A program made the position numbers and the translations under genes. DNA of 63,996 bases, filler included, from an uncultured Acidimicrobiia bacterium (lineage in GTDB: Bacteria; Actinomycetota; Acidimicrobiia; Spongiisociales; JAOTWH01): the NCBI GenBank assembly GCA_964347285.1. It is 3 parts of 3 records of this genome, joined end to end, with 100 filler letters (N's around TTAATTAATTAA, not from the genome) between each part and the next. Parts side by side here need not be neighbours in the genome. Positions count along the whole stretch, not along the records: positions 31,284 to 61,268 come from CAYFYE010000017.1; 2 more parts are not named here. The stretch is one strand, 5' to 3'. The notes under the pieces are model-generated. The model was not told the origin of the DNA. It saw only the letters and a list, made by a program, of their open reading frames with translations, and did not search any database. Within the stretch, counting starts at the first letter, position 1. Every line of letters begins with the position of its first letter. This document shows, in pieces, positions 3 through 63,996 of this stretch.

Positions 3-1136
3 GTGCGCAAGAACGTGCTCGTCACGACCAAGACGCCCGGGCCCGAGGACCTCGAGCCCGAAGTGGTGACCGGCGACAGCGGAATGATGGTGACCGAGTT
101 TGCTCCGTACGGGGTGGTGGGCGCCATCACCCCGACGACCAATCCCACGTCGACGATCATCAACAATGCCATCAGCATCGTTTCCGCCGGCAACGCCGCA
201 GTCTTCAACGTCCACCCCAATGCCAAGGCCGTGTCGGCCGAGAACATTCGGCTCATCAATCGGGCCATCACCGACGCGGGCGGTCCTCCCGACCTGATCA
301 CGGCCGTCCCCGAGCCCACCATCGAGAGCGCCAAGGAGCTGATGCACCATCCTCGGGTGCGGGTGCTCCTCGTCACCGGCGGGCCCGGCGTAGTGCAGGA
401 GGCCCTGAAGACCGACAAGAAATCCATCACCGCCGGCCCCGGAAACCCTCCGGTGGTCGTCGACGAAACGGCCGACGTCGAGGAGGCCGGTCGCAGCATC
501 GTGGCCGGGGCCTCCTTCGACAACAACGTCATCTGCACCGACGAAAAGGAGGTCTTCGCCGTGGAGGGAGTCGCCGACCGGCTCCTCCAGGCGATGGGCC
601 GCAACGGGGCCTACCTGCTCAAGGAGCACGAGCTGAAACGACTGGAGCGGGTGATCTTCAGCGAGCCGGGTCCGCCGCGGCGGCCGGGCAAGATCAATCC
701 GTCTTGGATCGGCAAGAACGCCGCCGCCATTCTGGGCGAGATCGGGGTACGGGTCGACGATGACGTTCGTCTGGCGGTCGCCGAGGTGCCGCTCGAGCAC
801 AATCTGGTGTGGACCGAGCAGATGATGCCGGTGTTGCCCGTGGTCCGGGTGCGCGACGTCGACGAGGCCATCTCGCTCGCCATCCAGGCCGAACACGGCT
901 TTGGGCATACGGCTTCGATCTACTCCACCAACGTCGAGACGATCACCCGCATGGCCCGAGCCTTGAACTGCTCGATCTTCGTCGCCAATGCACCCAACTT
1001 CGCCGGCCTGGGCGAGGGCGGCGAGGGCTTCAGCTCCTTCTCCATCGCCAGCCCCACCGGCGAGGGTCTGACCCGGCCCCGGACGTTCTCTCGATCTCGC
1101 CGGGTCACCGTGGTCGGGGCCTTGCGGATCGTGTGA
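3..1136 (+). CDS. CoA-acylating aldehyde dehydrogenase, EutE/PduP family (BMC-associated); 5' end lies outside the window
   Basis: Motifs PYGVVGAITPTTNP, VTGGPGVV, AGPGNPPVVVDETAD, SFDNNVIC (catalytic Cys), EQMMPVLP, SPTGEG; followed directly by shell genes. Confidence 0.95.
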   Translation: MRKNVLVTTKTPGPEDLEPEVVTGDSGMMVTEFAPYGVVGAITPTTNPTSTIINNAISIVSAGNAAVFNVHPNAKAVSAENIRLINRAITDAGGPPDLITAVPEPTIESAKELMHHPRVRVLLVTGGPGVVQEALKTDKKSITAGPGNPPVVVDETADVEEAGRSIVAGASFDNNVICTDEKEVFAVEGVADRLLQAMGRNGAYLLKEHELKRLERVIFSEPGPPRRPGKINPSWIGKNAAAILGEIGVRVDDDVRLAVAEVPLEHNLVWTEQMMPVLPVVRVRDVDEAISLAIQAEHGFGHTASIYSTNVETITRMARALNCSIFVANAPNFAGLGEGGEGFSSFSIASPTGEGLTRPRTFSRSRRVTVVGALRIV

Positions 1137-1137
1137 C

Positions 1138-1725
1138 ATGCGGCCGGCCATCGGTCTTTTGGAGTTTGCCTCGATAGCGGTGGGAATCCAGGCCGGGGAC
1201 GCAATGGTCAAGCGTGCCCCTCTGGACGCGATCTACGCCGGGACGGTGGAACCGGGAAAGTACCTGGTGCTGGTGGGAGGAATGACGGCCAGCGTCGAGG
1301 AATCCATGGATGCCGGCCGTGCGGTCGGAGCGGCGGTCCTGGTCGACGAGATGCTGCTTCCCGACGTGCATCCCATGGTGGTGTCGGCCATAGCCGGGGA
1401 GAGGCTCTCCGCCGCCGGGGAGGCCCTCGGAGTGATAGAGACCGCCACGGTTTCGGCCGTGGTCGAGGCCGCCGACGCCGGCGTCAAAGCGGCCGAGGTC
1501 GACCTTCTCGAGCTCCGGCTGGCCGACGACCTGGGCGGCAAGGGCTATCTGCTGTTCGGGGGAACGGTGGCCGCCGTAGAGGCGGCGGTCGAGGCCGGGG
1601 TGGGCCGAGTTCCCGGGGAGCAGTTGGTGGCCCGGGTGGTCATCCCCCAGGCCCACGGGGAGCTGATGGGCAATCTCGAAGCCGACGGCCGATTCGGTGC
1701 CCGCACCCACGGGCTGGAGGGGTGA
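1138..1725 (+). CDS. Tandem BMC-domain shell protein (BMC-T, PduT-like)
   Basis: Two BMC domains: AIGLLEFASIAVGIQAGDAMVK...PGKYLVLVGG and ALGVIET...AADAGVKAAEV...LGGKG. Confidence 0.93.
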   Translation: MRPAIGLLEFASIAVGIQAGDAMVKRAPLDAIYAGTVEPGKYLVLVGGMTASVEESMDAGRAVGAAVLVDEMLLPDVHPMVVSAIAGERLSAAGEALGVIETATVSAVVEAADAGVKAAEVDLLELRLADDLGGKGYLLFGGTVAAVEAAVEAGVGRVPGEQLVARVVIPQAHGELMGNLEADGRFGARTHGLEG

Positions 1726-1997
1726 TGCAGCTGGGCCGGGTCATCGGGACGGTGGTGGCCAGTACTCGGGCCGAAGGGCTCGAGGGCGTCAAGTTCCTCA
1801 TCGTCCAGCCGCTCGATCGGAGTCGTCGGCCCACCGGGCGCCCGGTCGTCGCCGCCGACGGGGTCGCCCAGTCGGGTCCGGGCGAGCTCGTCTATTACGT
1901 GGCGGCCCGGGAAGCGTCGCAGGCTCTTCCCGAGAAGTTCGTTCCCGTCGACCACGCCATCGTCGGCATCGTCGACGCCGTGGAGGACTTGTCATGA
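1722..1997 (+). CDS. EutN/CcmL family microcompartment vertex protein (BMC-P)
   Basis: MQLGRVIGTVVAS...VVAADGV..GPGE...HAIVGIVD; 4-nt overlap with upstream gene. Confidence 0.93.
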   Translation: MMQLGRVIGTVVASTRAEGLEGVKFLIVQPLDRSRRPTGRPVVAADGVAQSGPGELVYYVAAREASQALPEKFVPVDHAIVGIVDAVEDLS

Positions 1998-31828: not shown

Positions 31829-32152
31829 ATGCCACCGGCCTTCTTCTACGCCGGCTTCGCTTGGTGGGGCTTCGCCTTCTGGATGGGAGTTCCGGGTGTG
31901 ATGCAGATGCTGGCGGCTAGATCGTTGCATCCCGCCGAGCGGGCAGGCGATGCCCAGGGAGCGATGGCGGCAGGTCGCGCCCTGGCCCCCTTCCTCGGCG
32001 GCGGCTTCGCCGATGCCGGTGCCTATACCGCCCTGGCGGTCGTCTCGGGCATGGGCCTTGCAACAGCCAGCCTCGCCATCGTCGGCGTTCAAGAGGGTCG
32101 GGAGCGCTTGCCGCCCACCGACCCCACTTTCGGGGCGCCCGGGACGCGTTGA
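31829..32152 (+). pseudogene. C-terminal fragment of an MFS transporter
   Basis: Three TM helices with ERAGDAQGAMAAGRALAPFLGG; no room for the N-terminal portion. Confidence 0.65.
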
Positions 32153-32178
32153 GGGGGCCCAGACGGGCCCCCTCAACG
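32147..32178. terminator. 14-bp perfect hairpin between convergent ORFs
   Basis: CGTTGAGGGGGCCC-AGAC-GGGCCCCCTCAACG. Confidence 0.8.
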
Positions 32179-32184
32179 TGCGAG

Positions 32185-32268
32185 TTACTTGCTCTTCTTC
32201 GATGACTTCTTGGCCGCGGGTTTCGGCGCTTGCTTCTTCGAGCGGCTGTTTGCCTTACGAGCAGGCAT
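32185..32268 (-). CDS. 27-aa lysine-rich small protein MPARKANSRSKKQAPKPAAKKSSKKSK
   Basis: GGAGG 5 nt before ATG, AAG-biased Lys codons, TAA followed by hairpin; below ORF-track cutoff. Confidence 0.7.
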   Translation of the reverse strand: MPARKANSRSKKQAPKPAAKKSSKKSK

Positions 32269-32369
32269 GGACTCCTCCATTGAGACGGCCACCCGGGATG
32301 GGTGGCAACCACGCGAATGTATTCGCTCTCACGTAGCTTGGGAAGGCCCAAATGTTGTCGAACACGACG

Positions 32370-32570
32370 ATGCGTCCCGTTGCCTTCCGGCTGTTGGCGA
32401 CGGCGTGCGGTACGGCGTCGGTGCCCGCTGCCTCCGCCACCCCTGAGGTGCTCGCCGCCCGGGAGGCGGCCTTCTCGGCCGCCTGCGCCGAGTGCCACGG
32501 TCCCCGAGCCACCGGCACCGATCAGGGCCCTCCCCTCGTCGACGACATCTACCGCTCCTCCCACCACGCC
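32370..32570 (+). pseudogene. N-terminal fragment of a class I cytochrome c lipoprotein
   Basis: Lipobox-like ATAC, CAECH heme motif, GTDQGPPLV..IY...HH; similarity ends at the capsid junction. Confidence 0.7.
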
Positions 32571-33362
32571 TTGGGAAGCGATAAGTTCGTTCATCGCCCA
32601 AGTGGAGTTATCCCGCCAGCGGGCGGCCTGATTGTCATAGACCGCAAAGAGGTCAGCCAACGCCAAAACGTCGGTAGTGGCTGACGTGACCTCCTGCGCC
32701 CCTCCTGACAGGGCGGTGACGATCCCGAATGGTTGCGCCGTGCCTGAACCAGTCGCAAACGCGGTGTTCTCCAGGTTGGCCTGGGCGTCCACCATCATCC
32801 TGGTGACTTCCTCGGCGAAGTTCGGAATGTCCATCCCGACTTCGATTGAGAACGGGACGAACACGGCGAGTTTGTGCACTGTGACTTGTGGCTGGGCGAG
32901 GGTGGGGGCGTCGTCTGACACTTCGGTGGCCTCGGCATCCCACGAGGCCGAAATTTGCCCGGTGCTGACTCCGCTCCACACGTCACCGGTGGCGATGACC
33001 TGGCGGCTCACCCCGGCGATTCCGTCCTGGCTGCCGGCACCGGTGATGACGAAGGCCGGGTCCAACTGGGCCGGTACGGCGAATCCACCGGCGGCGTCGG
33101 TGAGGCTCATGGCACGGCTGATTTGGTTCAGGCGGCGGATGGCCCGCACCTCAGCATCGGTGAGGGGTTCACCCCGGAGGCTCGCCCAAAAGGCGGATAC
33201 GTAGTCGGGGTGGCTGGCGTTGAGGACCCAGCGGGAGAGGTCGCCGGCGGCGTTGTCGAACCGCTCCACTGCCCTGGTCATTGCTTCCCTGGTTCGGTCG
33301 GTGGCGCCGGAGGCGTAGGTGTCCCAGATCCACGGCGACCTCCCGATTGCTCGTTTCCCAAG
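32571..33362 (-). pseudogene. Internal fragment of an HK97-fold phage major capsid protein
   Basis: RAMSLTDAAGGFAVPAQLDP, ASWDAEATEVSDDAPTLAQP, FVPFSIE, FATGSGTAQPFGIV, WAMN; both ends missing. Confidence 0.82.
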
Positions 33363-45524: not shown

Positions 45525-46550
45525 TCATCGGCCATGGGCCACCACCTCCCCGAACCCGGGGCCCTCGGGGCGCTCCAGCTGGTCCATCGTGCACTGCTCG
45601 GCGTCCTTGTCGGGGCGCCATCTCTCCAGCCGGGTGGCATGGCGAAACCGCCCCTCGGCCAGCTGGTCGTAGCTGACCTGGACCACCACCCCGGGCTGCA
45701 CCGGCACCCACGACATGTCCTTGCCTCCCGACCACCGGCTCTCCATGCCGGGACGGCGGGCCTCGTCGCCGAAGCTCTCCCCGGTACGCAGCTGCTCGAA
45801 CTGTTGGAGCAGCTCCACCCGGTCGTGGTCGGAGAAGCCCGAGCAGTGGCCGATGAAATGCAGCTGCCCCCCGGCATCGTAGAGGCCGAGGAGCAGGGAC
45901 CCGATCTTGTCCCCGTTCTTGTGGACCCGGTATCCCCCGACCACGACGTCCACCGAGCGGCGGTGCTTGACCTTGATCATCTCCCTCTTCCCCTCCACGT
46001 AGGGGGCGTCGGTCTTCTTGGCGATGATGCCGTCACAGCCGGCCGCTTCGAACTCGGTGAACCAGCGGCGGGCCTCGTCGACGTCCTCGGTGGACGGGGA
46101 CTGGTGCCAGGGATGGTCGAGCCCGGCCATCAACGCGTCGAGGCGCTCCCGCCGCATCGTGAACGGCTCTTTGCGCAGGTCGGTGCCGCCGGCGGCGAGC
46201 AGGTCGAAGGCCACCAGCCGGGCCGGGACCTCCTCGGCCAACAGCGCAATGCGCGATTGGGCCGGATGGATCCGTAGCTGCAGCGAATCGAAGTCGGTGA
46301 CGTCGTCGACGACCACCACCACCTCGGCGTCCACCACCGTGCCCCCGGGGAGCCGGCCCAACGCCGGTTCCAGCTCCGGGAAGTAGCGGAGCAGCGGCCT
46401 CTGGTTGCGACTGTCGAGGCGGGGCTCATCGCTCCAGGCCACCGCTCGGAAGCCGTCCCACTTGGGCTCGTAGGCCCAGCCCGGCGATTCGGGCAGGAAT
46501 TCCCGAACCCTGGCCTCCATAGGCGTGATCGGCGGATCGAACGGCCACAT
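45525..46550 (-). CDS. ligC: ATP-dependent DNA ligase (LigC type)
   Basis: YEPKWDGFR, DAEVV, AFDLL, DGIIAK, MIKVK, RWRPDK. Confidence 0.92.
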   Translation of the reverse strand: MWPFDPPITPMEARVREFLPESPGWAYEPKWDGFRAVAWSDEPRLDSRNQRPLLRYFPELEPALGRLPGGTVVDAEVVVVVDDVTDFDSLQLRIHPAQSRIALLAEEVPARLVAFDLLAAGGTDLRKEPFTMRRERLDALMAGLDHPWHQSPSTEDVDEARRWFTEFEAAGCDGIIAKKTDAPYVEGKREMIKVKHRRSVDVVVGGYRVHKNGDKIGSLLLGLYDAGGQLHFIGHCSGFSDHDRVELLQQFEQLRTGESFGDEARRPGMESRWSGGKDMSWVPVQPGVVVQVSYDQLAEGRFRHATRLERWRPDKDAEQCTMDQLERPEGPGFGEVVAHGR

Positions 46551-57053: not shown

Positions 57054-58496
57054 ATGAGAAGACGAATTACGACCAGGGGAGTGCCGGCGGTCCTGCTGGC
57101 ATTCGCCCTGATCGCGGCGGCGTGTGGCGACACGACCGGCGAGGCTCCCGAGGCCCCGGCCGAGACCGAGGCCCCTGCTGAGACCGAGGCCCCCGCCGAG
57201 ACGGAGGCTCCGGCGGAGACCGAGGCCCCCGCCGAGACCGAAGCTCCTACGGCCGCCGGACCGGTGGTCGTCTGCGAGCTGGCCTATTACACGGGCGAAT
57301 TCGCGCCGTACGGGCCGGCCCTGACTGCGGACGTGGCGTTCCCGATCGAAGAGGTGATCAATCTCGATCCCCCGCTCGGGCGTACGTGGGAGCTGATCAG
57401 CGAGGACATCGGTACCGTCGGTGAAGGCCAGGCGGCTCGTACCTGCCTGGAGCAGCACGGAGCCGAGATCCTGGTGAGTCCCGCCCACGGGTACCGGCCG
57501 TACCGCTCCTTCCTCCAGGAGTGGCTTGCGGAGAACGACTCGCCGCTGATGCCGACGGTCCACGGTGGCACGATCCCCGGGAACCTCGGCGGAACCGGCA
57601 CGGAGCCGATCTTCCGGGCCCAGGGCCTCGACGAGGCCTTGGGCATGACCGGGGTGCTGTACGCGGAGACGATCGGCGTTGAGTCGATCGTGATCTTTGC
57701 CACCCAGGTGGAGGGCTTCCAGCTGGCCGCCGGTGCCGCCGAAAAGGCGGCCGAGGCGGTCGGAATCGAGGTCCTGGCACGGATCGACGTGCCGGCGGAG
57801 CAGCCCTCGTACCGGGCCGAAGCCGAGCGAATTGCCGAGCTCGAGCCCGACGCGGTGATCGTGCAGGCGGGGTCGGTGGAATCGGCCACCCTGATCAAGC
57901 AGGCGGCCGAAGCGGGCCTGTCCCTCAACTGGATCGGTGAGACCGGCTGGGTCCAGCCGGAGTTCATCGGAACGCTGGGGACCGACGCCATCGCCACCCA
58001 GGAGAGCATCGGCTACGGCGCGTTCACGTACGACGACACCACCCCCGCCTGGGAGTTCTACCAGCCGCTGTGGGACGACACCGAGGGGTACGGGTCCGGG
58101 ACCGACTACGGCGACGCGACGGGGAACTACCACTACTCGACCTACGACCTCCTGGTCCACACGGCGCTCGCCGCCGAGTACGCCGGGTCGTACAAGGCGA
58201 GTGAGTGGGCTCCGGCGATGTTCGAAGTCGGCGACCCGCCCGGAACCGTGTGCTACACGTACGCGGACTGCCTGGCGCTGATCAGAGCTGGTGAGGACAT
58301 CGACTACGAAGGCGTCACCGGCCCCGGCACGTACTCCGAAGGTGGCGTCAACGCCGTCACCCAGGCGTACGCACCGTTCCTCGAGGACGGGAGCGTCGGT
58401 GAGGCGGTGGTCATCGACGCAGACCGTGCGCTGGAGGTCATCGGTCTGATCGCCGTCGAGGCGGAGTGCACGGCGGACGGCGAGTGCGAGTGGTAG
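57054..58496 (+). CDS. ABC substrate-binding lipoprotein (Leu/Ile/Val-binding family)
   Basis: RBS AAGGAGG, lipobox AAAC, EAPAET linker, C...I..G.DIDYEG..G motif. Confidence 0.88.
   Translation: MRRRITTRGVPAVLLAFALIAAACGDTTGEAPEAPAETEAPAETEAPAETEAPAETEAPAETEAPTAAGPVVVCELAYYTGEFAPYGPALTADVAFPIEEVINLDPPLGRTWELISEDIGTVGEGQAARTCLEQHGAEILVSPAHGYRPYRSFLQEWLAENDSPLMPTVHGGTIPGNLGGTGTEPIFRAQGLDEALGMTGVLYAETIGVESIVIFATQVEGFQLAAGAAEKAAEAVGIEVLARIDVPAEQPSYRAEAERIAELEPDAVIVQAGSVESATLIKQAAEAGLSLNWIGETGWVQPEFIGTLGTDAIATQESIGYGAFTYDDTTPAWEFYQPLWDDTEGYGSGTDYGDATGNYHYSTYDLLVHTALAAEYAGSYKASEWAPAMFEVGDPPGTVCYTYADCLALIRAGEDIDYEGVTGPGTYSEGGVNAVTQAYAPFLEDGSVGEAVVIDADRALEVIGLIAVEAECTADGECEW
57150..57239 (+). repeat. 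Five 18-bp coding repeats (EAPAET linker)
   Basis: GAG GCy CCn GCn GAG ACs x5, varying only at third codon positions. Confidence 0.92.
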
Positions 58497-58531
58497 GAGG
58501 CGGCTAGGACAAACGGCAAACCAGCCAGTGC

Positions 58532-58565
58532 GAAGGCGGCAGCGGGACACCCCGCTGCCGCCTTC
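58532..58565. terminator. 15-bp perfect hairpin between convergent genes
   Basis: GAAGGCGGCAGCGGG-ACAC-CCCGCTGCCGCCTTC. Confidence 0.82.
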
Positions 58566-58575
58566 CGCGAAAGCC

Positions 58576-58938
58576 TCAGTAACTCAGCACCCGGTCGTAT
58601 TCCATCGTGAGGTCGCTGAGGTCGTCCGGCCCAGCGAACTCGGCGTTCTTGCCTTCCAGATCCGATTCGTCGACCGCACGGGCCAGACTGCACGGCTTTC
58701 AGACGTAGACGGGAATGCCGTGGTCGACGACCTTGTCCCACAACTGACGAAGTGGCGGGAAGCCGACGCCGTGGATGCCGTCGACGACGGCATCCTTCAT
58801 CAGGTAGACGGCTTCGCCCATGACCACGATTCCGGGCTCGTGCCCGCGATCGATCGCTCCCGAGGCAACGAGGAACGGCATCGTCGCCCGCGTCGGGTCG
58901 TCGGAGGCGTAGGTGCCGACGATCAACAGCTTGCCCAT
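58576..58938 (-). CDS. DsrE-family protein, probable selenoprotein (UxxC; TGA at 58699-58701), 120 aa
   Basis: DDPTRATMPF..A.GA...G, GEAVYL, GVGFPPL, IPVYV-TGA-KPCSLARAV...DRVLSY; frame stays open for 40 more codons. Confidence 0.85.
58669..58688 (-). promoter_or_regulatory. Putative bacterial SECIS hairpin
   Basis: GUC-U-GGCC-CGUGC-GGUC-GAC begins 11 nt after the UGA; bulged U and GU-containing loop. Confidence 0.6.
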
Positions 58939-59311
58939 GGAATCTCCCTCCCCTCGAAGATGCTTTGAAGCCCAGCCTACTTGTCCCGCGCAACAGAACC
59001 TGGTGACCTACCCGACTGATCTACCTCACTGAGCGGGTACCCGGCTGGGTCGGCGGGATTGTCCGCCTGGCCCGACTCGGCCCCAACAGGTCGCAGTTTG
59101 ACTCGCGAGGCCCTGGACCTTCGATCAGGCCGCCAAAGGACTGCTCGGAGCCACCACAACCGGGAATGGCAATGTTGCCCAAACTCTCTTGGTGGCGATG
59201 TAGCGCGCAGCCATTGCAGCCGGCACTACGACGGCGTTTGCATTCGACTTCCGTACAACCTCACTGTTTGCCTGCAGCTCATCGCAGAGTCTCGCCTACC
59301 GACCCGTCCGC

Positions 59312-60238
59312 TCACGCCGCGGCGGGGCCGTCGCACTCAGGACGGGACCGGCGGAGGAGGCGCGGAAAGAGGCGAACGATCTGGCCCGCCCCGAACCCGG
59401 CCAGGAGGCCGACGCCGACCAGGATCAGGGGGAGTGCCAGCAGCCCTGCTGCGGTAATAGATTCGGCGCCGAGGGTGAGGCCGAGGGCCACGGCGACCAC
59501 CGGGTTGACGTAGGCGTAGCTGGTGGCGAGAGCGGGGCGCACGTTCTCCAGCAGGTACATGTAGGCGCTGAAGGCGATGATCGATCCGAACACGATGAGG
59601 TAGGCGAGGCCGAGCCAAGCGGCGATCGGCGGGGCGCCTGCCAGCTGCTCCCCTCGAACGGCGCCGAGCAGGAGAAGGAGAGTGCCGCCGGCGAGCATCT
59701 CGGCGGCGACCCCGGTCGGGCCGACCGGGAGATCGACCCGGGTGCGGCGCATCGAGCCGAACGCCCAGCTGATGGTGGCGGCCAAGAGGATGACCGCCCC
59801 TGGAACGTTCGACGAGAAGTCGCCCTCGATGCTGAGCAGGGCGACCCCGGCCATGCCGACTCCGAGGCCCCACCATTCACGGCGCTTGGGCCAGCGCCCG
59901 AAGGTGCCACCGATGACCGCCGTCCACAGCGGGATCGCGGCCGCCGCCGTCGCCGCCAGGCCGGAACCGATCCCGGTCGACTCTGCTACGGCCACCAACC
60001 CCACACCGCCGACAACGAGGAGGGTCCCGAGTTCGGCCGCCGCTCGCCACTGGCGCCGGTCGAGCCGGGCGTATCGCCGGGCGGTGAAGGCATAGAGGAC
60101 GCCCCCGGCGATGAGGAACCGCATCCCGGAGCCGAGCAGCGGGGGGAACCCCGTGACCATGTACTTGATGGCGAGGTAGGTCGATCCCCAGATGAGATAA
60201 ACGGCCGTCAGGGCGGCGATCTTGCGATGCCGGGCCAC
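59312..60238 (-). CDS. EamA/DMT family exporter (YedA-like)
   Basis: VYLIWGSTYLAI, RFLIAG, YLIVFGSIIAFSAY, SYAYVNPVVAV. Confidence 0.92.
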   Translation of the reverse strand: MARHRKIAALTAVYLIWGSTYLAIKYMVTGFPPLLGSGMRFLIAGGVLYAFTARRYARLDRRQWRAAAELGTLLVVGGVGLVAVAESTGIGSGLAATAAAAIPLWTAVIGGTFGRWPKRREWWGLGVGMAGVALLSIEGDFSSNVPGAVILLAATISWAFGSMRRTRVDLPVGPTGVAAEMLAGGTLLLLLGAVRGEQLAGAPPIAAWLGLAYLIVFGSIIAFSAYMYLLENVRPALATSYAYVNPVVAVALGLTLGAESITAAGLLALPLILVGVGLLAGFGAGQIVRLFPRLLRRSRPECDGPAAA

Positions 60239-60505: not shown

Positions 60506-61051
60506 ATGACTCATTATTCCGAGGGGATGGAGCTGGCAACCGACCTGGTGAATTCCTTCGACGTGTTCGCCGGGGAGGAGCTGCTGGACTCCGTGGCCGA
60601 CCTCGCCGACTTCGCCGCGGCGCACGATCTCGACGCCGGACGGGCGACCAAGAAGGACCTCGAGCGGCTCCGTCGGGCACGCCCGGTGCTGCGCAACGCT
60701 CTGCTCTCCGACGATGAGACGGCGGCGGTAGCCGCCCTCAACGACCTCCTCGCTGCGGCCCGGCCTCGGCCCCGTTTGGCAGCCGGGCCAGACAGCAGCT
60801 GGGCTTTCAGGTACGCCGATCCCAAGGCTTCCCTCGCCGACCGAATCCTGGCCGAGGCCGCGGCGGAAGCTCTTCAGGAGATCCGTGACCACGGGATGCG
60901 CCGCTTCAGTATGTGTGACAGCTCTACATGCGACGACGTGTTCGTGGATCAGTCCCGCAACCGCTCACGCCGCTACTGCACGTCCGACGTGTGCGGCAAC
61001 CGGGAGGCCCAGCGCGCCTACCGCGCCAGGCAGGCGGATCGCACCGAGTAG
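60506..61051 (+). CDS. CGNR zinc-finger (ABATE/DUF1470) putative regulator
   Basis: DLVNS; C....C..VFVDQSRNRSRRYC...CGNR. Confidence 0.92.
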   Translation: MTHYSEGMELATDLVNSFDVFAGEELLDSVADLADFAAAHDLDAGRATKKDLERLRRARPVLRNALLSDDETAAVAALNDLLAAARPRPRLAAGPDSSWAFRYADPKASLADRILAEAAAEALQEIRDHGMRRFSMCDSSTCDDVFVDQSRNRSRRYCTSDVCGNREAQRAYRARQADRTE

Positions 61052-61268: not shown

Positions 61269-61368
61269 NNNNNNNNNNNNNNNNNNNNNNNNNNNNNNNN
61301 NNNNNNNNNNNNTTAATTAATTAANNNNNNNNNNNNNNNNNNNNNNNNNNNNNNNNNNNNNNNNNNNN
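61269..61368. other. Artificial contig linker
   Basis: N-run with TTAATTAATTAA at 61313-61324. Confidence 0.99.
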
Positions 61369-62090
61369 GGTGAACGGCGGTTGAACCGGGGAGACTCTCC
61401 CTCGGTGGTGACGATCAGGCCACCCCCGGCCAAGACGAGTGCTGTGCCGGCGGCAACGTCCCATTCGTGCTTGGGCACCAGAGTCCAGGTGGCCACATCG
61501 AGGCCGGCGGCCACCCGGGCCAGCTTGTAGGCCACCGAGCCCATGGGGTGGACGTCGAACGCGCCGTCGCTGAAGCCGGCCCATTCCCCACGAGCGATCT
61601 CGGAGCGGCTGGCCAGCACCCGGCGCCCTTCCAGTCTCGTCGCCCCCAGGTCGACGGCGGTGGGCCGCCCGTTCAGCGTCAGCCCGTCGTCCGTGGATCC
61701 GAGGATCATCTCGCCGGTCGACGGGTTCAAGATTCCGCCCGCCACGGCCTCTTCGCCCTCGACCAGTCCGACACTGATGCACCATTCGGGAATCCCTTGG
61801 AGGAACTCGCGAGTGCCATCGATGGGATCGACCACCCATACTCGGGCGCAGTCGAGCCGGTCCGGGGTGTCGGCCGTCTCCTCCGACATCCATCCTTCCC
61901 CGGGGCGAGGGAGGAGATCCACCAGTACGGCATTGACGGCCCGATCGGCCTCGGTGACCGGATCCCCGCCCACTTTCAGCTCGGCACTGATGGCGCCCGG
62001 CGGGAACGGGGCCAGGGCCGAGGCGGCGGCTTCCAGCGCCGCGCCGATCCGCTCGAGATCGGGACGGCGCGAGCCGTTCACTGCGGCCAC
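61369..62090 (-). CDS. cysQ: 3'(2'),5'-bisphosphate nucleotidase (inositol monophosphatase family), 3' end truncated by contig end
   Basis: PVTEAD, SEE, VDPIDGTREF, EWDVAAG; follows sat-cysC. Confidence 0.88.
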
Positions 62091-62133: not shown

Positions 62134-63873
62134 TCACCCGGCACCGTCGGCGTCGCCGATGTAGCCCCGGCCCTCCAGGTGGAGGATCACCCGGTTGGCC
62201 GCCTCCTCCGGGCTCAAGTTCGATGTATCGATGGTGACCTCGGCATCGGCCGGTTCCTCGTAGGGGTCCGATATCCCAGTGAACTCCTCGATGATTCCGG
62301 CCCGAGCCTTGGCGTAGAGGCCTTTGCGATCGCGCTGCTCGCACACCTCGAGCGGCGTTGCCACGTGGACGAGCGCGAAGCCGCCCAGCGGCTCGATCAT
62401 TCTCCGCACCTCGCGGCGGGTGTGGTCGTAGGGGGCGATCGGGGCGCAGATGGCGATGCCCCCGTTCTTGGTGATCTCGGAGGCGACGAAGCCTATGCGC
62501 CGGATGTTGAGATCGCGATGCTCCTTGGAGAACCCCAGCTCGGAGGAGAGGTGGGTGCGCACGACGTCGCCGTCGAGCAAGGTGACCGGTCGTCCCCCCA
62601 TCTCCATCAGCTTGACCAACAGCGCGTTGGCGATCGTGCTCTTACCGGAGCCGGAAAGACCGGTGAAGAACACCGTGAATCCCTGACGGTCTCGAGGTGG
62701 GTAGGTGCGGCGCAACTCTCGGGCCACCTCGGGATAGGTGAACCACTCCGGTATCTCCTTGCCGCCGGCCAGACGCTCGCGCAGGTCGGTTCCGGAGATG
62801 TTCAAGCTGCGCGCCCCAATGGGCACCTCGTCGATGGGCCGGTACTCGTCGAGATCCTCGACGTACAGCATGGGCTCGGAGGGAACCACGGTCACCCCGA
62901 GTTCGTCCTCGAAGTGGCGCACCATCTGCTGGGCCTCGTCGGGCCCGTAGAACGCTTTACCCCCTGACTCGGAGCCGGGCCCGGCATGGTTCTGCCCGAC
63001 GATGAGATGGGTACAGCCGTGGTTCCTGCGAATGATGGCGTGCCAGACGGCTTCGCGGGGCCCGGCCATGCGCATGGCCAGAGGAAGGAGTGCCAGCTTG
63101 GCGCTGTAGCGCGGATAGCGGTCCAGGATCGCTTGATAGGCGCGGACCCGGGTGTAGTGATCGACGTCGCCGGGCCTGGTCGGGCCCACCACCGGATGGA
63201 GGAGGAGGTTGGCTTCGGACTCTTTGGCGACCCGCAAGGTGAGCTCGACATGAGCCCGATGCATGGGGTTGTGGGTCTGGAAGGCGACCACCCGCGACCA
63301 GCCGAGGGCTTCGAACTCCTCCCGGAGCTGGGCCGGTGTGCGCCGCAGCAGGCGGAAGTCGTAGTGGGGTCTCACCTGCACACCTTCGATGGTGCCGCCG
63401 ACGTAGACGGGGTGGGTGTCCCTGAGCAAGTGAGCAACGCCCGAATGCTCGGTGTCGACCGTACCGAACACCTGCTCGGCTTCCGCTTCCCGGTCGGGTC
63501 GCCAGACGTCCTCCACAGTGAGCGCCGCCAGCATGATCCCCTCGGGATCCCGCAGGGCGATTCGGCTCCGCTCGGCCAGCCGTTCGGCGAACTCCCCGGT
63601 CACGTCCAAGACGACGGGGATGGGCCACAACGTTCCATCGGCCAGGCGCAGGTCGGCGCAGACCGCCTCGTAGTCCCGCCGGTCCAAGAAACCGCGCAGT
63701 GGTGAGAAGCCGCCGTTCATCAGCAGCTCCAAGTCACACGTTTGGCGGGGTGACAAGTCCCACGACGGCCAGTCGCGCGAGGCCGACTTGAGCGCGGCCG
63801 CCCGGTCGGCGTCGACCATCAGATCGACGAGGTCGCCGGCGTGGGGCGAGATGAGACTGTCGGACACGATCAC
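62134..63873 (-). CDS. cysC: Bifunctional sulfate adenylyltransferase/adenylylsulfate kinase (start uncertain, 63867-63924)
   Basis: GGFSPLRGF, FQTHNPMHRAH, MRMAGPREA, ISGT; kinase GLSGSGKST, LDGD, RDRKGLY, FTGISDPYE. Confidence 0.92.
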   Translation of the reverse strand: MIVSDSLISPHAGDLVDLMVDADRAAALKSASRDWPSWDLSPRQTCDLELLMNGGFSPLRGFLDRRDYEAVCADLRLADGTLWPIPVVLDVTGEFAERLAERSRIALRDPEGIMLAALTVEDVWRPDREAEAEQVFGTVDTEHSGVAHLLRDTHPVYVGGTIEGVQVRPHYDFRLLRRTPAQLREEFEALGWSRVVAFQTHNPMHRAHVELTLRVAKESEANLLLHPVVGPTRPGDVDHYTRVRAYQAILDRYPRYSAKLALLPLAMRMAGPREAVWHAIIRRNHGCTHLIVGQNHAGPGSESGGKAFYGPDEAQQMVRHFEDELGVTVVPSEPMLYVEDLDEYRPIDEVPIGARSLNISGTDLRERLAGGKEIPEWFTYPEVARELRRTYPPRDRQGFTVFFTGLSGSGKSTIANALLVKLMEMGGRPVTLLDGDVVRTHLSSELGFSKEHRDLNIRRIGFVASEITKNGGIAICAPIAPYDHTRREVRRMIEPLGGFALVHVATPLEVCEQRDRKGLYAKARAGIIEEFTGISDPYEEPADAEVTIDTSNLSPEEAANRVILHLEGRGYIGDADGAG

Positions 63874-63996
63874 GCTCTCGGGACGATCAGACTGGCCCGA
63901 CCGCGCTGCGCGGTCAAACGGCATTGTAGCGTGTTCGTGCTCGACTGTGAGTGGGGGGGCTAATTGTGTTGCCCCGGTAGGTTCGCGACGCGGGTG

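Follow-up and report, generated by a model that had tools for sequence, protein, structure and literature searches.

A probable selenocysteine codon and a conserved downstream hairpin in a stand-alone DsrE-like gene of an uncultured Acidimicrobiia bacterium

The Locus and Its Reading Frame

The DNA analysed here is a stretch of 63,996 nucleotides from an uncultured Acidimicrobiia bacterium, and is called the window throughout. Its minus strand carries, between a gene for a periplasmic binding protein and one for a YedA-like EamA exporter, a short reading frame whose features are collected in Table 1. Translation table 11 yields an ORF at 58699..58938 (minus) of 79 amino acids with the C-terminal end IPVYV, as a preliminary description of this DNA had reported, and the frame indeed continues past the TGA at codon 80, which is its only break in 120 sense codons. 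The read-through peptide given in that description, KPCSLARAVDESDLEGKNAEFAGPDDLSDLTMEYDRVLSY, was reproduced exactly and is followed by a second TGA. The product of 120 residues overall has the normal length of the DsrE family and contains the motif U80-K-P-C83, which is of the UxxC type, and a purine-rich stretch resembling a Shine-Dalgarno sequence, GAGGGGAGGGAG, lies upstream of the start codon. GC content by codon position is 0.68/0.39/0.87 in codons 1–79 and 0.68/0.40/0.80 in codons 81–120, a coding pattern that is absent from the other two frames of the 40-codon extension.

Two longer ORFs overlap this gene, one of 146 amino acids at 58528-58968 (plus) and one of 229 amino acids at 58304-58993 (minus). 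Neither found a match in the family search and both were rejected as genes, having the look of typical high-GC shadow frames; over a selenocysteine (Sec) gene such frames could mislead gene callers. Next to the second stop codon a terminator had been proposed. A strong hairpin does lie there (z -3.30, with 0/200 shuffles folding as well), and the terminator itself did not stand in full, as a T-run is absent and a consensus terminator scan returned 0 sites.

Table 1. Positions of the DsrE-like gene, its parts and the surrounding genes along the window.
Feature	Position	Strand	Details or basis
Periplasmic binding protein, flanking gene	57054-58496	plus	
G+C-rich hairpin between convergent genes	58530..58568	minus	8 nt after second TGA
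Whole gene, probable selenoprotein	58576..58938	minus	ATG 58936-58938, 120 sense codons, terminal TGA 58576-58578; Pfam DsrE; AF2
40-codon extension 3' of UGA, residues 81-120	58579..58698	minus	predicted helices 81-86, 91-94, 104-113; predicted strands 99-102, 116-119
SECIS-like hairpin	58669..58688	minus	MFE fold, 58-sequence pairing, codon bias, tree
Hairpin, lower stem	58686-58688 with 58669-58671	minus	MFE fold
Hairpin, bulged U	58685	minus	MFE fold
Hairpin, upper stem	58681-58684 with 58672-58675	minus	MFE fold
Hairpin, loop CGUGC	58676-58680	minus	MFE fold
Hairpin, further outer pairs	58693-58695 with 58662-58664	minus	MFE fold
TGC, Cys83, second residue of UxxC	58690..58692	minus	T13 and G14 invariant in 58-sequence alignment (columns 13-15)
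In-frame TGA, codon 80, proposed selenocysteine (U of U-K-P-C)	58699..58701	minus	relatives, YchN/TusD alignment
Shine-Dalgarno-like purine-rich stretch	58944..58955	minus	5 nt upstream of ATG, read from sequence
YedA-like EamA exporter, flanking gene	59312-60238	minus	NF008432, E 1.4e-91
CGNR zinc-finger/ABATE regulator	60506-61051	plus	
CysQ/HisN-like phosphatase	61317-62090	minus	
Bifunctional sulfate adenylyltransferase/APS kinase (sat/cysC)	62134-63924	minus	

Protein Family and Predicted Fold

Read through the TGA, the protein matches the Pfam family DsrE (PF02635) with an E-value of 2.7e-16 and 60.2 bits (cut-off 22.7), residues 3–119 covering profile positions 2–115 of 116 with the TGA included, and the assignment to this family in the preliminary description is borne out along the full length. 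AlphaFold2, run on a 40-sequence alignment, predicts a complete DsrE/YchN fold (pLDDT 98.2, pTM 0.91), in which strand 77–80 runs into helix 81–86 and residues 81–120 form three helices and two strands. Since the extension would supply these three helices and two strands, a product of 79 residues would leave the domain incomplete. A Foldseek search of the PDB returned YchN (1jx7), the Sulfolobus DsrE/DsrF-like protein 3mc3, TusD (2d1p_A) and DsrE (2hy5_A), with TM 0.72–0.83 and probability 1.00. In NCBIfam release 20 no model scored above its cut-off for the 120-residue protein and none names a DsrE-like selenoprotein; a weak TusB match (E 0.0051, 16.9 bits) lies below the cut-off of 49.2.

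The best structural match by E-value is E. coli YchN (3.1e-07, TM 0.72), a stand-alone DsrE-family protein of unknown function. Its CKTC aligns with U80-K-P-C83, a conserved Arg-Gly comes next in both proteins, and both are encoded by single genes without DsrF/DsrH partners; YchN has Cys where the window protein would have Sec, and the two are 18% identical in the Foldseek alignment. TusD of TusBCD (2d1p) and DsrE of DsrEFH (2hy5) have the fold in common with the window protein (TM 0.74–0.76), with weak sequence similarity to the family profile (E 3e-4 and 6e-3). TusD also has a Cys at the U80 column, whereas the window protein has an extra Cys at +3. In the profile alignment U80 falls on the first Cys of the YchN CKTC and on the TusD Cys at 2d1p_A chain residue 90, which, assuming a 12-residue tag, we take to be the active-site, persulfide-carrying Cys78. 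Unlike in the TusBCD and DsrEFH relays, no tusB/tusC or dsrF/dsrH-like gene adjoins the window gene, and Pfam matched neither the overlapping frames nor any of the small ORFs within the 373 nt that separate the gene from its upstream neighbour. As DsrF/DsrH-like neighbours are lacking, the product is regarded as a stand-alone protein of the YchN type, outside a DsrEFH/TusBCD relay.

Codon 80 Among the Relatives

Among the best 120 of 142 database clusters nearly all members are 79 amino acids long and stop after the same residue, down to 58% identity, and the two full-length exceptions among these best-listed clusters carry Cys (P0061, CMPC) and Gly (P0005) at the site. Together with 37 near-full-length proteins picked from the 646 matches (E up to 0.001) of an exhaustive search of representatives, these two make up a set of 39 full-length relatives. 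At the position of codon 80, 18 of them have Cys, 15 Ser and 4 Gly, while Arg and Ala occur once each. A CxxC motif occurs in 17 of the 18 Cys-type proteins, and position 83 is Cys in 23/39.

A scan of genome contigs gave 71 related loci, mostly metagenome-assembled genomes (MAGs) of Acidimicrobiia, Chloroflexota, Acidobacteriota, Poribacteria, Gemmatimonadota and SAR324, the nearest relatives being Acidimicrobiia MAGs. TGA stands at the site in 64/71 loci, 58 of them in the matched frame and six after allowing for an upstream frameshift (L058, L060, L061, L062, L064, L068); five loci have Cys (L047, L048, L050, L063, L071) and two are unreadable, L065 being interrupted after codon 42 and L070 running into a contig end. 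The preliminary description had expected Cys or TGA at this position, which agrees with both sets, and it had named a genome without selABCD combined with a general lack of TGA among close relatives as grounds for giving up its interpretation, the part on the relatives being the opposite of what these loci carry. Although a single-base change would be enough to turn TGC or TGT into TGA, a sequencing or assembly error is scarcely conceivable as the explanation, as TGA recurs at codon 80 in those 64 independent genome loci and P0004, a separate database record for a 99% identical protein, likewise ends at residue 79.

Several of these loci show peculiarities of their own. Seven have frameshifts within the gene, the six listed above upstream of the TGA and L059 after codon 88, with the TGA and the extension kept in another frame; indel errors of the assembly or decay into pseudogenes would account for them. 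Three Dehalococcoidia loci contain two in-frame TGAs, in the arrangement U-G-x-U-A-R-A-R-G (UxxU; L023:10235-10250, L067:10235-10250 and, frame-shifted, L064 near 10235), and their downstream RNA sequence differs, CGC replacing CGT. The gene tree of 54 sequences mixes phyla: Acidobacteria and Acidimicrobiia MAG genes can be near-identical (L012 versus L013, for example), and Chloroflexia copies adjoin the clade of the window gene. Such mixing reflects either horizontal transfer or mis-binning of MAGs.

A Conserved Hairpin Downstream of the UGA Codon

In the minimum free energy (MFE) fold of the window sequence, the lower stem pairs GUC with GAC, a bulged U follows on the 5' side, and the upper stem pairs GGCC with GGUC around the loop CGUGC. 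The first paired base is the 11th nucleotide after the UGA, so the geometry given in the preliminary description, including the bulged U and the GU within the loop, is recovered. The selenocysteine insertion element (SECIS) of E. coli fdhF is a coding-region stem-loop whose start lies 11 nt downstream of the UGA, and it has a bulged U and G-U in its apical loop. The window hairpin shares the 11-nt start, the bulged U and the apical G-U, and differs in its shorter upper stem of 4 bp; most relatives have 5–7 bp and a GUG loop.

The folding energy of the window hairpin is not above chance (z +0.93; 171/200 shuffles fold at least as well). Because the energy of the single sequence lies within chance, the significance of the hairpin has to be sought in comparison with relatives. 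The alignment used for the RNA and for the extension holds 58 sequences, namely the window and 57 loci (L059 and the Cys-type L063 were left out), and it requires no gaps. RNAalifold gave a consensus of 2 pairs on this alignment and did not recover the hairpin. The upper stem (columns 21-25 with 29-33) was named from the per-sequence folds and its pairs were then counted: 94.1% of cells are paired, versus 36–69% with a slid partner, a comparison that favours the named stem since its definition was taken from the same 58 sequences.

Pair 21:33 is GC in 38 sequences, CG in 13, AU in 2 and another combination in 5, and pair 24:30 is CG in 55, UA in 2 and AU in 1; the covariation score was matched by 0/500 shuffles. 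The four varying columns all fall on third codon positions, which makes the compensatory changes synonymous-site changes. A protein tree of 54 rows, from which the hairpin codons and the partial L008, L043, L044 and L069 were left out, requires at least three changes for the C:G state, reached from G:C, and one for A:U, although the well-supported branches of this quick tree, taken alone, are compatible with fewer changes, even with a single C:G origin.

Codon choice within the hairpin is also skewed. Arg87 is CGT in 50/58 sequences versus 8% of the Arg codons elsewhere in the same genes, and the same contrast is seen at Gly88 (GGG in 45/48 Gly codons; background 24%) and at Ala86 (GCC in 53/56 Ala codons; background 45%). 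G-U occurs in the apical loop of 50/58 sequences. The lower stem has a variable register with a bulge of 0–2 nt, and its contribution is modest, with a mean of -16.8 kcal/mol versus -14.4 for shuffled flanks and 7/58 sequences at or below the 5% level. Rfam at gathering thresholds gave no match to the hairpin region. A permissive Rfam search of 58500-58800 returned only miRNA and viral-hairpin matches below threshold, which lie on the G+C hairpins and were attributed to chance, and no bacterial SECIS family was among them.

The pairing, the synonymous compensatory changes and the codon skew make up the signature of a bacterial SECIS. The comparative evidence places a stem-loop just 3' of the UGA with a G in its apical loop, and the predicted hairpin agrees with the way in which bacterial SECIS elements have been described, as stem-loops just after the UGA with a conserved apical G (PMC1088965).

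The Extension as Coding Sequence

Across the 58 sequences the frame after the UGA runs for 40 codons in 50 cases and for 39 in 6, the other two being cut by a contig end or Ns, and it closes with TGA in 26, TAG in 19 and TAA in 11. Entropy at the three codon positions is 0.93/0.89/1.51 bits after the UGA versus 1.13/0.74/1.65 before it, the third position being the most variable on both sides. As a length of 39–40 codons is kept and third positions vary most, the extension is taken to be translated; its pattern of variation indicates purifying selection across phyla.

This bears directly on whether the TGA is simply a real stop. The gene would then yield a 79-residue fragment or be a pseudogene, for instance after loss of the Sec machinery, with the downstream frame a decaying remnant. 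Such a reading agrees with standard gene calling, which gives 79 amino acids, with the absence of Sec machinery from the window, and with the broken copies or assembly errors among the relatives (6/71 loci shifted upstream of the TGA, and L059 after codon 88). It is nevertheless improbable, for the extension in the window is intact over 40 codons with a coding GC profile, it seems to be held by purifying selection in other phyla, the hairpin is kept, the frame ends 8 nt before a strong hairpin, and the shorter product would be without two strands and three helices of the predicted fold.

Decoding of the UGA Codon

The window gene very probably encodes a 120-residue stand-alone protein of the DsrE/YchN fold in which the UGA at codon 80 is decoded as selenocysteine. 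By the standard mechanism of bacteria, the stem-loop would act as the SECIS; it lies within the coding sequence, with its start 11 nt and its apical G-U loop 18 nt downstream of the UGA. SelB loaded with Sec-tRNA(Sec) would attach to this element and supply Sec to the ribosome pausing there. Translation would then cover another 40 codons and end at the second TGA, where no hairpin of this kind follows. We infer actual Sec insertion and SelB binding from these features. The selenoprotein interpretation of the preliminary description thus gains support from the full-length DsrE match, from Cys or TGA at the site and from the conserved, covarying hairpin.

A scan of 66 window ORFs gave no selA, selB or selD domain, and ARAGORN detected no tRNA, and hence no tRNA-Sec, in the 64-kb window. 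Nor was a tRNA-Sec found by ARAGORN in the 60 loci scanned of the 71, and neighbourhood clustering gave no sel genes within 6.5 kb of the gene across the related loci. Within class Acidimicrobiia, selA, selC, selD and a divergent selB are reported from all 84 complete Actinomarina genomes covered by a recent preprint (10.64898/2026.04.03.716425), so that the trait exists in the class; Actinomarina is a different genus from the 68%-GC organism of the window. A DsrE-like selenoprotein would imply that a complete selABCD set is encoded at another place on the chromosome.

UGA might also be read without selenocysteine, Cys or Trp being inserted by a near-cognate or suppressor tRNA, or else the code might be reassigned as in table 4 or 25. 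Any code that gives TGA an amino acid keeps the frame open. TGA is, on the other hand, an ordinary stop in this DNA, ending 35/51 Pfam-supported window genes and the DsrE-like gene as well, so a global reassignment is excluded; insertion of Trp is at odds with an alignment in which most Cys-type relatives have Cys, not Trp or Gly, at the site. SelB-dependent recoding requires a local hairpin with a G-U loop, of the conserved kind seen here, and neighbouring genes with an in-frame TGA of their own, found in 10/71 loci and described below, point to the use of Sec in these lineages. Taken with both sides of the evidence, read-through with another residue is highly improbable, and decoding as selenocysteine remains the preferred reading. 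No other TGA read-through gene was found in the window with a weak composition filter, which also missed the DsrE-like gene; one candidate at 45525-45527 was rejected as two adjacent genes in a shared frame.

Relation to Published DsrE-Like Selenoproteins

DsrE-like selenoproteins are already known, as the preliminary description had noted. A DsrE-like protein (PF02635, UxxC) was reported in 2005 as a selenoprotein family of the Sargasso Sea with 2 sequences (PMC1088965) and found in 2006 in Desulfovibrio vulgaris (PMC1794560), and the entries in reviews of 2022 and 2026 list it as 'predicted with high confidence' with function unknown (PMC9312934, PMC13188914). The published proteins, as these accounts describe them, and the window gene both have the PF02635 domain, a UxxC motif with Sec first, Cys homologues and a SECIS after the UGA. 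The likeness is one of description, and the relatives found here come mainly from MAGs of Acidimicrobiia, Chloroflexota, Acidobacteriota and Poribacteria, in contrast to the published Sargasso Sea and D. vulgaris sources. At the sequence level the window gene belongs with this family and is not new in kind. The present analysis adds a strong comparative alignment of the SECIS, a broad distribution in which most copies are mis-annotated, a neighbourhood with ArsM-type selenoproteins and the UxxU variants.

The gene would be a textbook selenoprotein cut short by standard annotation, in the same way as nearly all of the best 120 of 142 clusters, which are 79-residue fragments, and NCBIfam release 20 holds no model to rescue them. 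Its recognition would add a Sec-using gene to an Acidimicrobiia-like genome.

Gene Neighbourhood and Possible Function

In the predicted structure U80-x-x-C83 lies where a beta-strand ends and a helix starts, at the column of the YchN and TusD Cys. Because Sec would occupy this column and another Cys stands three residues further along, a function in selenol/thiol redox chemistry or as a chalcogen carrier can be proposed, and the product is most likely such a redox protein or a carrier of chalcogen (S, Se, possibly As).

The region upstream of the gene is a sulfur-activation neighbourhood (Table 1). The gene comes after the EamA exporter and, in window coordinates, about 2.4 kb from the cysQ-like and sat/cysC genes. 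This sulfur-gene context is not conserved among the relatives; the EamA exporter and ABC genes are common to 4 loci. Neighbourhood clustering of the related loci within 6.5 kb gave a methyltransferase as the commonest conserved neighbour (14 loci) and no other widely conserved partner.

In 10/71 loci a gene for an ArsM-type SAM methyltransferase lies within ~1.5 kb of the DsrE-like Sec gene (L013:6072-6860 and L023:9094-9900, and also L026, L028, L030, L036, L053, L058, L067 and L068); the window lacks such a gene. These genes match the first ~200 positions of the NCBIfam 'arsenite methyltransferase ... selenoprotein' models and have their own in-frame TGA in DLW-x-x-U-I-A-G (UxxG), followed by ~60 more codons. 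UxxG arsenite-methyltransferase selenoproteins are among those described in PMC13188914, and the predicted TGA motif matches theirs as given there. Neighbours of this kind suggest a link of the DsrE-like selenoprotein to metalloid handling, and a Sec-containing ArsM-type neighbourhood provides a lead to the function of the family. Among the titles that a literature search listed, none dealt with DsrE together with arsenite methyltransferase.

A more specific proposal, for which we claim only a small chance, is that the DsrE-like selenoprotein is a chalcogen/metalloid carrier with its selenol at the persulfide position of TusD/DsrE, that in many lineages it is the partner of a Sec-containing ArsM, and that the UxxU form of Dehalococcoidia is a diselenide version. 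If this carrier reading were true, the two genes would form a two-selenoprotein arsenic/selenium module, a role that no member of the DsrE family has been assigned so far.

Other Loci in the Window

Two further regions of the window deserve mention. The edge of a bacterial microcompartment locus lies at 3-1994 (plus), where an aldehyde dehydrogenase fragment comes first and genes for a BMC-domain shell protein and an EutN/CcmL vertex protein come after it. At 31917-33281 (minus) an ORF of 454 amino acids matches the HK97-type Phage_capsid family (PF05065, E 5.7e-17); the adjoining ORFs gave no Pfam match, and the ORF could represent what is left of a prophage, or else a shell of the encapsulin type.
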